Part shown: positions 991 through 16,811 of the stretch, piece by piece
Layout of the letters: each line of letters starts with the position of its first letter
Position numbering within the stretch: position 1 is the stretch's first letter
Source of the DNA: Octopus sinensis
Lineage: Eukaryota
NCBI RefSeq assembly: GCF_006345805.1
Contig: NW_021836889.1
Span: 1 to 22,409, forward strand
Length of the DNA stretch: 22,409 nt
Direction of reading: 5' to 3'
The notes under the pieces: model-generated
What the model was told of the DNA's origin: nothing
What the model saw: only the letters and a program-made list of their open reading frames with translations
The model's database searches: none
Position numbers and translations under genes: made by a program

Positions 991-1261
991 AATTATAGAA
1001 TCAGTAATAGAAACAGCCACAACCTCCACTAACATCACCCGTTTCCCTCTCTGTCATCACTCACATACGTCATCACTTATACCTGCAAACATAAACGCCA
1101 CTAATTACCTTGTCTCACTAACGTGCCATCATTCCATTGTCGTTAAATTTCACCTATGGCATCTACATGAGAAGCCAGAACATATATTATGTGTGTATAT
1201 ATATATATATAATATATATATATATATATTATATATATAAAAATAGGGACGGCAGGTCTAT

Positions 1262-1322
1262 GGGATTGCCGTAGGTTTCCCGTCCATAAAGGGTTTAGCA
1301 TGATGGCGTATCGTCAGATCCC
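1262..1322 (-). ncRNA. Degenerate inverted copy of the 1352-1412 hammerhead
   Basis: Minus strand reads GGGAU CUGACGA U ACGCCAUCAUG...GGACGG GAAA CC UAC GG CA AUCCC. U16.1 is changed to C and stem II has mismatches. Confidence 0.7.
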
Positions 1323-1351
1323 GAAAACCTGTTATGGGTCAACAAATTTTC

Positions 1352-1412
1352 GGGATCTGACGATACGCCATAAAGCTAAACACTTTATGGACGTGAAACC
1401 TGTGGTAATCCC
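1352..1412 (+). ncRNA. Type I hammerhead ribozyme, complete fold
   Basis: Stem I GGGAU/AUCCC; CUGACGA 1357-1363; extra U; stem II ACG-CCAUAAAG/CUUUAUGG-A-CGU; GAAA 1395-1398; stem III ACC/GGU with UGU loop; GUA cleavage triplet 1405-1407. Confidence 0.85.
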
Positions 1413-1664
1413 ATAAACCGGCCTTCCCCATTTTTAATATATACTGCTCTACATCTTAGAATGTCCTTCTTTCGGGTTTAGGCTTTCAACAAATGATATA
1501 TATATATATATATATACTATATATATATTTGTGTCGATAAATTACCTATTTCTCTGCTGATATACACACAAACCTACCTACCTACCTGCCTGCCTGCCTG
1601 CCTACCTACCTATAATTCTGAGTATTCCGAGCGTTACCTAATGTAATCCTGATTGTCCTTTGTA

Positions 1665-1767
1665 CACCCTGATGAGTTTCCATACAAGATATTTAAAGTG
1701 CAAAATTATATATTCATATATGTTTTGTAATTTTAATTTTGTCTGTGAAATGAAACAATAGTAGGTG
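1665..1767 (+). ncRNA. Type I hammerhead ribozyme with a very long stem II
   Basis: Stem I CACC/GGUG; CUGAUGA 1669-1675; stem II opens GUUUC/GAAAU and continues as an imperfect hairpin over 1676-1751; GAAA 1752-1755; stem III AC/GU with AAUA loop; GUA 1761-1763; AATAAA at 1784-1789. Confidence 0.75.
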
Positions 1768-1964
1768 AATATGTTGACTAATTAATAAATTAATTTGTAT
1801 CCATTAGATCTCTCCTTTTTCCAAGTCGATAATAATGTTCCATATATATATACATGTATACAAACATGAACACAAAAAAGCACGCACGCACATGGGACAT
1901 AGCTTTGCATAAGCAATATCTGTTTGTGTGTATACACGAAGGGGTCCTTCAGTTTTTCTAAGCC

Positions 1965-2460
1965 TTTAGCAGTATTCTTTGGATTATCATAGCCACTGTA
2001 TCAGTACTGCACTCTCTACAGCCATGTGTCTGCTGCACAAATTCAAATATTTCTTAAACCTTTCGACCCAGACTTTACTAGCCAAAATAGCTTCCATTTT
2101 TTTGTTTCATTTCAAGTTTCATTTTGCTTTTTATGCAAATCATCACATGAACATTTAGTTTTATTTTCAAAATTTACATCATGCTCATTGCCACATTGAG
2201 ATGTATTGGATCATCGATCCCTACACTAAGGAGCCGTTCCGTTTTAAGCATCACATAAGAGCTATGAAAAAATAAGATCCGAGCAGTTAACACAGAAGTC
2301 TTTTCGATCATTCGTTTTACATGACGTTGCAAAGTTTAATGCTTTAGCAACGTAGCTAATGTCATCCTCTGCATCAAATCTTTTTGAAATATCAAGTTTA
2401 ATACCCAGTATAATTCTTTTACTGTTCCTATTCACACTACTGCCTTCAGTTGCCCTTCAT
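1965..2460 (-). pseudogene. Tigger/pogo-family transposase relic (N-terminal CENP-B-type HTH domains)
   Basis: Manual minus-strand translation across stops and frameshifts: SKRIILGIKLDISKRFDAEDDISYVAKALNFATS, VMLKTERLLSVGIDD, LASKVWVERFKKYLNL...VESA. These match Tigger motifs (KLDIIKRFE, MERLLSVWIED, ASKGWFERFKKR...GESA). Confidence 0.8.
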
Positions 2461-3338
2461 GGCTACTTCCAGAGATTTTGAAATGTAGGTAAATCCAACG
2501 ACTGTGGTAATGAACAATTATCCACAATAAATATGTAGTAAAAGAAGAAGCACGGGGGAAAGAAGCGTTTGTGAACGCAAAGCATTATTGCTATAGCAGT
2601 AAGAACAGAAATGAGATGAAAGACTGAAGGAGTGAGATGGAAGGAAGTACTTATGATTACAGGTTGTTGAAAGGTTACCAAATTCATGGTACTTCTCGTC
2701 TTGCACTTTTAACTTGAGCCATAAAAATTACACACTCTACTCACACACACTCACTCACCGTTAGGCTTACTTCCAACATATGTAGCTACAGACATTGTAG
2801 CATGCTGATATTTTCATTGCTATTGCCTGTTGGTTATACAAAAGTTGGTAAGCTGGTGTCAGTGGTGCCTGGTGGTCTTATTGTTATTTTTTGGTTGTGA
2901 GAATGATGGTGATGATGATGGTGATGGTGATGGTGATGGTGATGGTGATGGCGGGTGTATTGATGGCAGTGGTAGGATCATATTCTTCTTATTTGTATTG
3001 CTGTAGCTGTTCAACCACAAGTCATTACTCGTTGACCTAAGACCAAGAATATTTCATTCAACTCCCGAAATACGATAGAATACTACATAGCTGCCTATCA
3101 CTATCTTTATTCTATTGACACCCTATTCTACGGTGTATTGAGTTGTAATACTGTTCTATACTCGTCTCTTATTATATTGTACACTATTCTACTTTAGCCA
3201 CAACCCCCACCATATTAGGATCTTTCCCACATGGCAATCAAGAAGATTCGAACGATATTAAAACATGTAGCAGTTCTGAGGTCTAAACACGTGGCTTACG
3301 GTATAAAACGAGGGGAGGGTGGATTCCTGTTGAAAGAA

Positions 3339-3467
3339 GGATGGATGGACGGATGGACGGATGGACGGATGGACGGATGGATGGATGGATGGATGAATGG
3401 ATGGATGGATGGATGGATGGATGGATAGATGGGTGGATGGATAGATAGATGGATAGATGGATGGATG
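3339..3467. repeat. (GGAT/GGAC)n tetranucleotide microsatellite
   Basis: Direct reading. Confidence 0.95.
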
Positions 3468-14274: not shown

Positions 14275-14359
14275 GAAAAGACTCGCCCAAGGTGCCACAC
14301 ATTGGGACTGAATCCGGAACCATGTGGTTGGGGAAGCAAGCTTCTTACCACACAGCCAC
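14275..14359 (-). mobile_element. SINE family 1 5' head
   Basis: gcccaaggtgccac...gaaccatgtggttgg...cttaccacacagccac is the reverse complement of the head at 19857-19940. Confidence 0.85.
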
Positions 14360-14655
14360 ATGATCGAAGGAGTACAACGACCAATGCAAGCGGCCGAAAT
14401 GAGATTCCCTCACTAGAGTAACGCTAATCGACAGATTGCATAGCTTGGAGATCAGAGAGTATCTCCAAGCGAAGCCGCTAATTCTCTACATTGAGTGGTC
14501 ACAGCTCTAGTACTATAAACACAGGATTAGAATGGCGCAGGAGACCTAGGAGTAGACCAAGAATATGGCTGGATAATATCTTTAGTCTCAGTTAGTCACA
14601 CGTGGTAATCCAGAAGGAAAGCATAACAACGGTTGCATTCGACTGGAACTTAGGT
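14360..14655 (+). pseudogene. RTE-clade LINE ORF C-terminal relic
   Basis: Manual translation with shifts: MIEGVQRPMQAAEMRFP / RVTLIDRLHSLEIREYLQAKPLILYIEWSQL*YYKHRIRM / RPRSRPRIWLDNI. Matches RTE motifs QAAEMRFLR, IERSQLRWFGHxxRM and RPRGRPRxRW. Confidence 0.85.
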
Positions 14656-14777
14656 ATTCTGTTTACTTTGGCTTGAACAGTCTGTCTTGTGAGCCTGTGG
14701 CATTCTAACCACATTTGCATAGGAGAAGCAGGAAAGGCCCTTTATTGAGGAGATGCCTAAGGGCTCTACTCAAAACA

Positions 14778-15103
14778 AATAATAATAATGATAATAAGTA
14801 ATGCCTTGATACAATACTTCTGATCTTAACTGGTTGGAAGTGTTATCATGTACATGTTTTGTATTGATATAAAACATGGGCTACAGCAAATGTTCTGCTC
14901 AATACCATAGATTTGCTTATCAGCTGTTTGACCTTAACCAGCTGAGCATGTCCCTTAGTGGCTGACAATATGTGCATCTCTGAACATGAGCAGAAGTAGT
15001 TGGGGAGTATCCTAGCCATTTGTTGAGAGGAATTATTTAGGGTTTCAATAATTCACCTCTGGAAATATGGGTGTTTCGCTCAACATCTTTAAACAATCCT
15101 TTT
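14778..15103 (-). mobile_element. Probable retroelement 3' end with (ATT)n tail, family unassigned
   Basis: Complex-sequence block ending on the minus strand in an (ATT)n tail; I recall similar sequence as an octopus interspersed repeat; no protein motif recognised. Confidence 0.35.
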
Positions 15104-15106
15104 TGA

Positions 15107-15167
15107 TGGACGAAATGCCACTCAGCTTTCTGCCCGGCGTGCTAACGACTCTGCCAGCTCGCCGCCT
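15107..15167 (-). mobile_element. SINE family 2 5' head (A-box region)
   Basis: Reverse complement aggcggcgagctggcagagtcgttagcacgccgggcagaaagctgagtggcatttcgtcc matches the head ending at 8915. Confidence 0.8.
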
Positions 15168-16377
15168 TTCGAATCAGAAACCAAATTGAAGACGGAAGAT
15201 CAAAGCAATGAACCTAAAGTTCCACTCTTTGAATAAGATTAGAAAAAATCAAAGATGCTCATACAGATGTCACTTAATTATTTTCTAGCTATAATATAAA
15301 CCAAAATAACTGAGTGTCGCATGTGTATATGTGTGTGTGTCTGTGTGTATCTGTCTGTGTGTCTATGTGTGTGTGTTTATGTGTTTATGTTTTCCTTTGT
15401 CTCTGTGCGGGTACACACACACATTCATAGACAAACACACACACACACCACACACACACACATATATGTATATATTTGAAAACAAATAATTTCAAATATA
15501 TATGTACATATGCGCCTCTGCGTGTGTGTATGTGTGTTTTTGCGTGTGTAATATTTTCTCATAGACACCCATGCACACTCACACACATATTGTACATGTA
15601 GCTCACATTTCTAATATAATCCATTTTAATAAATCTATATATATATATATATATAAATTCAAGAAGAACTTGTAGGGTTATCAAAATATGTTTTGTAATT
15701 CTCTTTAACATATTTCATATTACTATTAATTCAGGCTTCAAATATTTAATCTAGTGATACATTTAAAATTTTCTTAGCTCTAATTCTTTCTATGTAATTT
15801 AATTATTTGAACGAACTGAAGCACTTATGGCGCAACAATTACCCTTACAAAACAACATCTGGTTTGAGCTTCAATAACAATACATAATTGTAAGTATATA
15901 CGTTTTAGAGCTAACTGAAACACATATATATATATATATATATATATATATATAATACATTATGATATATATATATAAGTATTATATATTCACGCATGCG
16001 TCAGTCGTTTTAATCTGTAAAATATCGTAAAGGCAAACTACATATAGCGCTCTTTAACGCATTGACACACACACACAATTCGAAATTAGTTGAAAGTTAT
16101 GACCATGATATATGCGAAATAAATAATGGAAGGGAATGAATCTTGAACGAACGGTTAGAAAGAAAATGTTTTTATATATTTACATACTGAAAATATACGT
16201 TAGCATGCATAAACAAATATTCACATACATAAACACGCAGGTGCATATTAGAACATATATATATATATATATATATATATAAGGTTAATCCAAACGGGAA
16301 AACAGAAAAAACAACAACACGTGGAACAATTACAGTATTATATTATTAGGCGCTCAGGAAAATGGAGAAGGAGGAGG

Positions 16378-16412
16378 GTATGACGTTTCGAGCGGAGCTC
16401 TTCGTCGGAAAC
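16378..16412 (-). ncRNA. Minimal/degenerate type I hammerhead motif in a ~220-bp element (16282-16500) between TA-rich microsatellites
   Basis: Minus strand GUUU CCGACGA A GAGC UCC GCUC GAAA CG UC AUAC: U4 changed to C, perfect 4-bp stem II, palindromic ACGU in place of stem III, stem I 3/4 paired. Confidence 0.55.
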
Positions 16413-16811
16413 ATAAGAGAAGGAAGAAAGAAGAAAGAAAGATCACGATGTGGGCGAACAGGGGGAAAAAACGCGACTGGTGTTTACGAAGTACACATGC
16501 TGATATATATATATATATTTGTATGTATGTATGTATGTATGTATGTATGTATGTATGTATGTATGTATATAGGCAGAAATATATACATCAATAAAGTGGT
16601 AAATGGCACCAGTCAACACCAGTATTACTAGAAATATGAGAGAAAACAACTCAATAGCTACGGAAAGCATCATCTTAAGGACTGACCAAGGAGGCAAGTT
16701 CCCTACAGAACCAGATAGAGCAAGATCATCGATAATTTGTTTGTTTTTGATTTTGTCAACTACACACAATAGTAAGGTCAGCTGGACACCGTCTGTGAGA
16801 AAAACAGCAAC

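Follow-up and report, generated by a model that had tools for sequence, protein, structure and literature searches.

Hammerhead-bearing blocks beside (TA)n tracts in an Octopus sinensis contig are very probably truncated 3' ends of Penelope-like elements

Contig NW_021836889.1 of Octopus sinensis (NCBI RefSeq assembly GCF_006345805.1) carries four short non-coding blocks beside TA-rich microsatellites, each with a match to the core of a hammerhead ribozyme, and the question which this locus raises is whether such blocks are mobile elements in their own right or pieces of something larger. The blocks, named here B1 (1230-1494), B2 (1615-1839), B3 (5318-5671) and B4 (16282-16503), lie in a window of 22,409 nucleotides, by which we mean the whole stretch of DNA that was analysed. 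A sequence-only reading had taken them for several separate non-autonomous ribozyme-retroelement families, a proposal which did not hold up: every family extends 5' into the coding sequence of a Penelope-like element (PLE), and there is neither a common 5' end nor a tandem array of short units. The four blocks are very probably the 3' ends of four high-copy PLE families, three Hydra-type and one Neptune-type, likely produced by target-primed reverse transcription into (TA)n which stopped after 160-230 bases. They represent a known insertion pattern of PLEs and no new class of mini-element.

All four blocks are repeats and not single-copy sequences: a first search of the octopus's own genome gave 2,138 candidates for B1, 710 for B2, 2,178 for B3 and 2,609 for B4, of which 40 were scored per block and which should not be read as copy numbers. 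As had been read from the sequence, the blocks and their helices are unrelated, with no mutual BLAST similarity at E 0.01. The analysis across copies is based on the best 30 loci per family (120 loci in all; L numbers here denote loci and longer stretches), with the window's own copy included in each set and four overlapping or near-duplicate pairs retained (L005/L012, L014/L015, L022/L024 and L077/L078); the main arms in these loci were selected by likeness to the window blocks, and the same selection favours short lengths. Within the window itself tblastn found no match to a PLE protein, and three ORFs (open reading frames) gave no Pfam match. Genome searches with the PLE endonuclease (EN) returned 12,041 and 19,089 candidates.

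The Penelope-like connection suggested by the sequence-only reading was borne out when longer copies were inspected, since in every family these run into coding sequence for reverse transcriptase (RT) and a GIY-YIG endonuclease. The hallmark of EN+ PLEs, RT and GIY-YIG in one ORF linked to the block, is present as an open frame in L205/L206 and L208 and in degraded form in L121 (B1) and L212 (B2). Clades were assigned from motifs and from residue comparison by eye. The B1 main arm (1331-1494, plus strand) is the 3' end of a Hydra-clade PLE family and matches at 86% the 3' end of L121, a degraded near-full-length B1 element with the motifs RWK, DKT, YRDD and CxCX5C. By eye, the stretch around DKT in L121 agrees with that of Hydra-1_Obim (also written Hydra-1_oBim) at 63 of 89 residues. 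EN coding sequence is collinear with B1 within 1.5 kb in 8 of 30 loci and in all three longer stretches chosen for shared upstream sequence. The B3 main arm (5318-5535, minus strand) is also the 3' end of a Hydra-clade family, with 91% identity to L128, where EN lies about 0.8 kb upstream of the B3-like sequence, and 79% to the pseudo-LTR (pseudo-long terminal repeat) of its relative L208. Here EN is collinear within 1.5 kb in two of 30 loci and in four of five longer stretches chosen in the same way. L208 has a 717-codon open frame between pseudo-LTRs which are 98.9% identical, and a motif scan of its protein found RWK, DKT, CxCX5C, CxxC and CxH and no CCHH; the translations of L121 and L128 likewise point to the Hydra clade. 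The RT catalytic motif of this frame is YKDD, as against YRDD in L121, L134 and Hydra-1_Obim.

B4 (16282-16503, minus strand) is the 3' end of a Neptune-type PLE family, 93% identical to L125 and 84-90% identical to both pseudo-LTRs of L205 and L206. In L125, one of four longer stretches, EN lies about 3 kb upstream of the B4-like end. In L205 and L206 an open frame of 1008 codons is bracketed by two pseudo-LTRs, which are 98.7% identical to each other in the former and 98.5% in the latter, so that the direct repeats of the partial tandems in L205, L206 and L208 together range from 98.5 to 98.9% identity. The proteins of L205/L206 carry DKG, YIDD, CX4CxxC and a CxxC inside GIY-YIG (a CCHH-type EN). 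The DKG, the CX2-5CxxC linker and the CCHH endonuclease of L205 are Neptune features that Nematis has as well; around DKG, however, 54 of 94 residues of L205 are identical by eye to Neptune1_Ap, which is visibly more than in the Nematis rows. The 3' untranslated region (UTR) of this family is about 3 kb of low-complexity, CA-rich sequence (L205:3661-6776).

The remaining block had been placed at 1529, but the match to its family begins near 1615: 1529-1614 does not match the B2 family, and the 5' neighbour of the block is an (ACCT)n/(GCCT)n array (1572-1612, by Tandem Repeats Finder, TRF). B2 (1615-1839, plus strand) is a 3' fragment, lacking the tail, from a Hydra-type PLE family whose 3' UTR is long and AT-rich; it is 87% identical to L097 and 78% to L212 and L213, and the window copy is without the roughly 125 nt of 3' end that 17 of 30 copies carry. 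No EN was found within 1.5 kb of B2 in any of the 30 loci. In L212 an inverted arm adjoins remnants of RT and EN, which lie about 2.7 kb upstream of B2 (one of four longer stretches by tblastn), and L213 shares the EN stretch of L212 in 77% DNA collinearity, which brings the total to two of four. L212 is decayed and truncated at its 5' end within RT, and it matches the Hydra-type proteins of L208 and L134 (E 6e-11 to 4e-9) and not that of the Neptune-type L205. The B2 family is therefore called Hydra-type on sequence resemblance, and we reserve the narrower Hydra-clade label for B1 and B3. No pseudo-LTR pair was seen for the B2 family. Its 3' UTR comprises about 2.7 kb of low-complexity AT-rich sequence (L212:4700-7650). 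A Hydra ORF beside B2 in L093/L133 was considered as the B2 parent and rejected; it has a different 3' end and hammerhead of its own and is a nested neighbour. In the further Hydra-type family of L133/L134 a long Asn-rich stretch precedes EN, and the hammerhead, which is this family's own, has the ACAAUUGU helix III of B2.

Across copies the families have a common 3' end at (TA)n and a variable 5' length, with 5' ends scattered from about 160 nt to more than 1.6 kb and grading into coding sequence. The 3' flank starts with (TA)3 in 17 of 30 B1, 15 of 30 B2, 21 of 30 B3 and 30 of 30 B4 copies, compared with 7.5% of random positions in the same loci. In the window, B1 lies between a (TA)n target tract on its left (1196-1239) and another (TA)n tract on its right (1496-1528); a TA-rich tract (5195-5317) adjoins the 3' end of the B3 main arm and a TA/TATG tract (5666-5765) the outer end of its inverted arm, all by TRF. 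B4 has (TA)n at its 3' end (16255-16281, TRF), and repeat finding placed a TA plus (TGTA)n tract (16504-16568) at its 5' truncation. The window holds 31 (TA)6 tracts, against 18.5 expected from 20 arbitrary 10-kb stretches. An inverted copy of the block, again a feature expected of PLEs and one that we could confirm, lies upstream in 20 of 30 B1, 11 of 30 B2 and 13 of 30 B3 loci; among the 30 B4 loci there was none within 1.2 kb. TA is found at the outer flank of these inverted arms as well (14 of 20 B1, 3 of 9 B2 and 9 of 13 B3 loci), while read-through copies such as L030, a pseudo-LTR of the B1 family, continue into the element body without a TA run. Unrelated PLE families were also seen nested in or beside each other's TA tracts (a B4 relative inside the B2 UTR in L212, and further cases in L093, L100 and L188). 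It had been proposed that these families either target or generate (TA)n; because both outer ends of the palindromes abut TA and read-through copies enter the body without it, the association stands, and (TA)n is most likely a pre-existing target rather than a product.

B1 and B3 are palindromic and both fold as long hairpins, with a ~60-nt unique 3' tail on one arm only, as had been read from the sequence. The inverted arm of B1 (1230-1333, minus strand; an 87% match to positions 12-114 of the query) is 5'-truncated and tail-less, and its outer end merges with (TA)n at a family-internal TTAATATATA site; 13 of 20 inverted B1 arms end at query position 114. The apex loop covers 1334-1340 (7 nt), and comparison of the arms gives a main-arm tail of 51 nt (1444-1494, plus strand). 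In B3 the inverted arm (5535-5671, plus strand, by alignment to the family) lacks the 61-nt tail of the main arm (5318-5378, minus strand), with an apex of 3 nt near 5533. In 10 of 11 palindromic B2 loci, too, the tail is on exactly one arm (p 0.006 vs 0.5; the query itself is tail-less). The 5' truncation, the inverted 5'-truncated copy and the tail at one end are all PLE traits.

Both palindromes in the window also agree with the earlier observation that the ribozyme is intact on the tailed arm and disabled on the shorter one: the core of the inverted B1 arm (1267-1317, minus strand) has decayed, as seen from its sequence and the family alignment, and has GCA in place of the cleavage triplet GUH, and in the inverted B3 arm a deletion of about 18 nt just before the core has removed the 5' strand of helix I and C3. 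This does not amount to a designed rule across copies, in which the core decays like its flanks. The whole motif is intact in 19 of 30 B1, 18 of 30 B2 and 21 of 30 B3 main arms vs 3 of 15, 2 of 7 and 4 of 8 inverted arms. Substitutions in the inverted arms affect 22 of 330 core positions (6.7%) and 233 of 2,936 non-core positions (7.9%; p 0.52), and the 22 of 330 core changes compare with 15 of 330 in the paired main arms (p 0.31); outside the core the two kinds of arm have diverged by 7.9% and 5.4%, respectively. The higher divergence of the inverted arms throughout is expected, since it was the main arms that were selected by resemblance to the window. A directed disabling of the short-arm ribozyme is rejected, as the core of the inverted arm changes no faster than its flanks and does not differ significantly from that of the main arm; the disabled arm is the outcome of neutral decay. 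In the main arms the core has changed less than the flanks (2.8% vs 5.3%, p 0.0004). Constraint acting in the source lineages would fit this difference, which may also reflect CpG decay or hit selection.

A relaxed core pattern has exactly four matches in the window, one per block, at 1357 (+), 1669 (+), 5474 (-) and 16408 (-), in line with the claim that each block holds a type I hammerhead core except that the core of B4 is non-canonical. The minimal motif of B1 (1357-1407, plus strand) reads CUGACGA...GAAAC...GUA with a GGGAU/AUCCC helix I; that of B3 (5424-5474, minus strand) reads CUGAAGA...GAAACUCGGAGUU with a GAUAA/UUAUC helix I; and the B2 motif (1669-1763, plus strand) has a long AU-rich helix II, with a palindrome, ACAAUUGU, as helix III of the family. 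Judged by their sequences, B1-B3 have the core elements and helices of a type I hammerhead (CUGANGA, GAAA, UH and helices I-III). Their cores are CUGANGA, GAAA and GUH with 4-5 bp in helix I and a very short helix III (2-3 bp), which in B3 can be closed only as a dimer. The B4 family departs from the canonical core and helix I: its minimal motif (16382-16408, minus strand) is CCGACGA (U4C) with a palindromic ACGU helix III and a weak helix I of A-U, U.U, A-U and G-C. All 30 of the 30 copies matched this motif, whereas helix I is a perfect GUUU/AAAC in a sister subfamily. Two PLE families unrelated to each other have intact members with the U4C core variant CCGANGA in both of their pseudo-LTRs, namely L205/L206 (B4) and L208/L210 (the B3 relative). 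U4C lowers activity in vitro, yet it permits viroid infectivity (PMC3088659).

Formal checks of these motifs gave divided results. A descriptor with helix checks recovered three of the four cores, missing B2, against a mean of 0.06 and a maximum of 1 in 200 shuffles; stricter descriptors recovered one core (reached by 6 of 200 shuffles) or two cores (two being reached by 0 of 200). No hammerhead model was found among the 150 of 180 Rfam matches listed for the whole window or among the five for 1340-1800, and the Rfam matches listed are microsatellite-driven microRNA models. A six-sequence alignment of B3 gave little information on helix covariation across copies: 95.6% of helix cells are paired, six of 19 pairs vary on one side and none on both, which is no better than shuffles. 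As to the high local density that had been noted, there are three descriptor matches in the 22.4-kb window compared with three in 200 kb (the 20 arbitrary 10-kb stretches), or 0.34 per window length; the excess is modest evidence, the window having been chosen for it and the comparison sample being small. We predict that in the parent RNA the four hammerheads act as weak ribozymes which depend on dimer formation or on protein, and for the solo fragments no hammerhead role is expected.

Taken together with published PLE biochemistry, these features suggest how the blocks could have arisen. The GIY-YIG domain of the element would nick (TA)n on both strands, and RT would begin copying at either of two internal positions of the RNA, some 35-200 nt downstream of the hammerhead site. 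Copies begun at the longer start would become the tailed arm, and those begun at the shorter start the tail-less arm. Early termination of the complementary DNA (cDNA) would leave a 5'-truncated fragment; two cDNAs joined head to head, or one folding back, would give the B1 and B3 palindromes, and both arms would then decay neutrally. In an anole PLE, RT starts internally at two sites which bound the tail, both target strands are cut and extended, and the hammerhead needs protein for activity and is dispensable for insertion in vitro (Frangieh et al. 2024, PMC11167929). In the octopus families insertions end downstream of the predicted cleavage site by 36 and ~87 nt in B1, ~76 and 200 nt in B2, 45 and 106 nt in B3 and 100 nt in B4, at sites inside sequence that read-through copies continue into the element body. 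At six such end sites, inspected by eye in read-through copies, the overlap with (TA)n is 7, 2, 4, 3, 4 and 1 nt, a mean of 3.5 vs a background of 1.0 (P about 1e-4), for sites which were chosen after the fact and, coming from four families, are non-independent. A tentative extension, which we would not yet favour, is that, when Hydra and Neptune PLEs target (TA)n, the RT start is picked by the nicked microsatellite through 2-7 nt of pairing with UA-rich words in the RNA, in the manner of telomerase, that each target strand is primed at a fixed site different from that of the other strand, and that U4C in two unrelated intact lineages marks cleavage which has been tuned down or become dispensable in recently mobile PLEs. 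Priming of the two strands at different fixed sites would explain the one-arm tail of the B2 palindromes. In PAc, the one PLE studied in vitro, start sites are by contrast non-homologous to the cut DNA. The insertion ends on short internal TA-like words and the one-arm tail in 10 of 11 B2 palindromes are two leads that go beyond what we found in print.

Several observations weigh against deriving all of the blocks from full-length PLEs. An intact ORF was not found for the B1 and B2 families, no direct search for one having been made, and the intact relative of B3, L208, is only 79% identical. Pfam gave a sub-threshold RVT_1 match on L205 and nothing on L208; the clade calls, drawn from motifs and by-eye comparison, are putative; and when whole motifs are counted, fewer inverted than main arms, in proportion, prove intact. 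Most of the top copies are short (160-260 nt, with median main-arm lengths of 182 nt for B1, 246 nt for B2 and 221 nt for B3), and a short master could give the same. This last point, together with L017 and L030 (two of 30 B1 loci), leads to the alternative closest to the sequence-only reading, namely that most short copies come from short non-coding masters, retrozyme- or SINE-like (short interspersed element-like) derivatives of pseudo-LTRs moved in trans by PLE proteins. Both loci are short, internally deleted partial tandems; in L030 two hammerheads lie 370 nt apart around a deleted body, like a retrozyme dimer, and animal retrozymes reportedly derive from PLE pseudo-LTRs (preprint 10.64898/2026.07.22.740005). 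L030 and L017 could illustrate the beginning of short tandem derivatives, but their junctions differ, 5' ends scatter and grade into coding sequence, and a second same-strand copy is present in only six of 30 B1, none of 30 B2, two of 30 B3 and none of 30 B4 loci. These pairs, except for L030 and an 81-nt partial piece (L007), are overlapping duplicate loci, of which two were inspected (L005 and L077); in these, host sequence and TA tracts lie between the copies. In addition, the block hammerheads are of the minimal PLE type; those of retrozymes are canonical and sit in units repeated head to tail (PMC7229834; preprint 10.64898/2026.07.22.740005). We therefore consider short masters unlikely as the source of most copies.

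The tracts themselves could be the work of the elements, added as a templated or slipped tail, and the TA that ends every B4 copy and the short TA-like words at end sites inside the element would fit; given TA at the outer flanks of inverted arms too, read-through pseudo-LTRs which enter body sequence without a TA run, and unrelated PLE families nested in the same tracts (L212, L093), we regard such addition as still less probable, while tract growth after insertion may have occurred. Long inverted repeats flanked by TA might also recall hairpin DNA transposons of the MITE (miniature inverted-repeat transposable element) kind, with TA target duplications and incidental hammerhead matches in B1 and B3. 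The arms are, however, unequal, the apex varies among copies, a nearby inverted arm is missing from 10 of 30 B1 and 17 of 30 B3 copies, and RT/GIY-YIG sequence follows in the longer ones, a linkage that we count as refuting this very improbable origin. More evenly poised is the question of how palindromes form once a PLE has inserted: instead of two separately primed cDNAs, a single truncated cDNA may have folded back and been recopied, and this we consider quite possible. The hairpin apices of 7 and 3 nt in the window suit fold-back, as do the 16 of 41 palindromic loci whose arms start within 15 nt of each other, although near-equal arms are partly expected from the selection favouring short lengths. 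Against it, the inverted arm is the longer in 8 of the 41, and PLE protein, modelled as a dimer, cleaves and extends both target strands in vitro (PMC11167929). With the main arm longer in the other 17 loci, arm lengths fail to separate head-to-head joining from fold-back.

Much of what the blocks display is already known of PLEs, including near-3' hammerheads, (TA)n targets, the inverted truncated copy and the one-sided tail. Craig et al. 2021 (PMC8557442) define the Hydra clade by RWK, DKT, a CxCX5C linker, the lack of CCHH, hammerheads and (TA)n targets; their listing includes Hydra-1_Obim, a hammerhead-bearing member from Octopus. The B1 and B3 families share with Hydra-clade PLEs the C-terminal EN, RWK, DKT, the CxCX5C linker and the CxxC and CxH around the end of EN, and B1-B3 share the (TA)n target and a hammerhead which lies about 100 nt from the 3' end and has a base inserted between positions 9 and 10.1. 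The hammerhead listed for Hydra-1_Obim and its flanks match none of B1-B3, which are accordingly other families. Differences lie in the B2 family's 3' UTR of near 2.7 kb, where Hydra elements are generally described as less than 3 kb, and in the tails, which measure about 51, 61 and 125 nt when 30-40 bp is the length reported for PLEs, in which a one-sided tail had been noted (PMC8557442). The B4 family resembles Neptune-clade PLEs (Neptune1_Ap, PMC8557442) in DKG, the CX2-5CxxC linker, the two GIY-YIG cysteines, the C-terminal EN and the microsatellite target, and is unlike them in its ~3 kb CA-rich 3' UTR and its CCGACGA core with mismatched helix I.

In the minimal hammerheads of metazoan PLEs, solo and opposite-strand motifs have been attributed to truncated PLEs and show low activity (Cervera and de la Pena 2014, PMC4209133). 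The blocks are like them in the short helix I, the palindromic or absent loop III and the extra base after A9, and in being mostly solo, with some opposite-strand pairs 100-700 bp apart and high diversity within a genome. U4C, as in B4, is not among the variants described in the portion of PMC4209133 compared here, which does not mention cephalopods. Animal non-LTR retrozymes likewise are short non-coding pieces with a type I hammerhead and kin to PLE pseudo-LTRs; unlike them, the blocks occur singly or as inverted pairs, vary in their 5' ends and run on into coding elements. No window block forms a head-to-tail tandem of 150-450 bp units, only L030 of the 120 loci has two hammerheads in one element, and the block families, leading as they do into coding sequence, are not non-coding families. 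No RNA dataset turned up with the pseudo-LTR of the B4 family, and the four sequencing runs compared with it are contig-level, which gives no view of ends, strand or circles. We found no description of these four families in the literature on hammerheads with Penelope, octopus or cephalopod retrotransposons. A recent repeat annotation of Octopus vulgaris, whose main text does not mention ribozymes, reports 31 recently active Penelope-like families (PMC13282606), and the four families may already sit in that library. What the analysis adds is the annotation, in an animal genome rich in microsatellites, of four PLE families which appear to be separate and of which some have intact members, and a caution that PLE debris can mimic small ribozyme elements; the intact L208 (Hydra) and L205/L206 (Neptune-type) and thousands of junctions provide material on the choice of RT start sites at microsatellites and on the purpose of the hammerhead.

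General repeat finding in the window was swamped by microsatellites. About 16590-17260 there is what we take by eye to be a decayed piece of a Tc1/mariner-like transposase, one frame of which was scanned without a Pfam match. TRF identified a tandem pair of 185-nt copies (92%; 7344-7705), after which comes a decayed minisatellite of 19-nt period (7660-7967), and a minisatellite with an 81-nt period at 21174-21669. Short interspersed repeats, probably SINE-like, form two groups, one at 8416-8760, 9691-9866 and 22317-22403 and the other at 14274-14359, 19844-20017 and 20743-20914.

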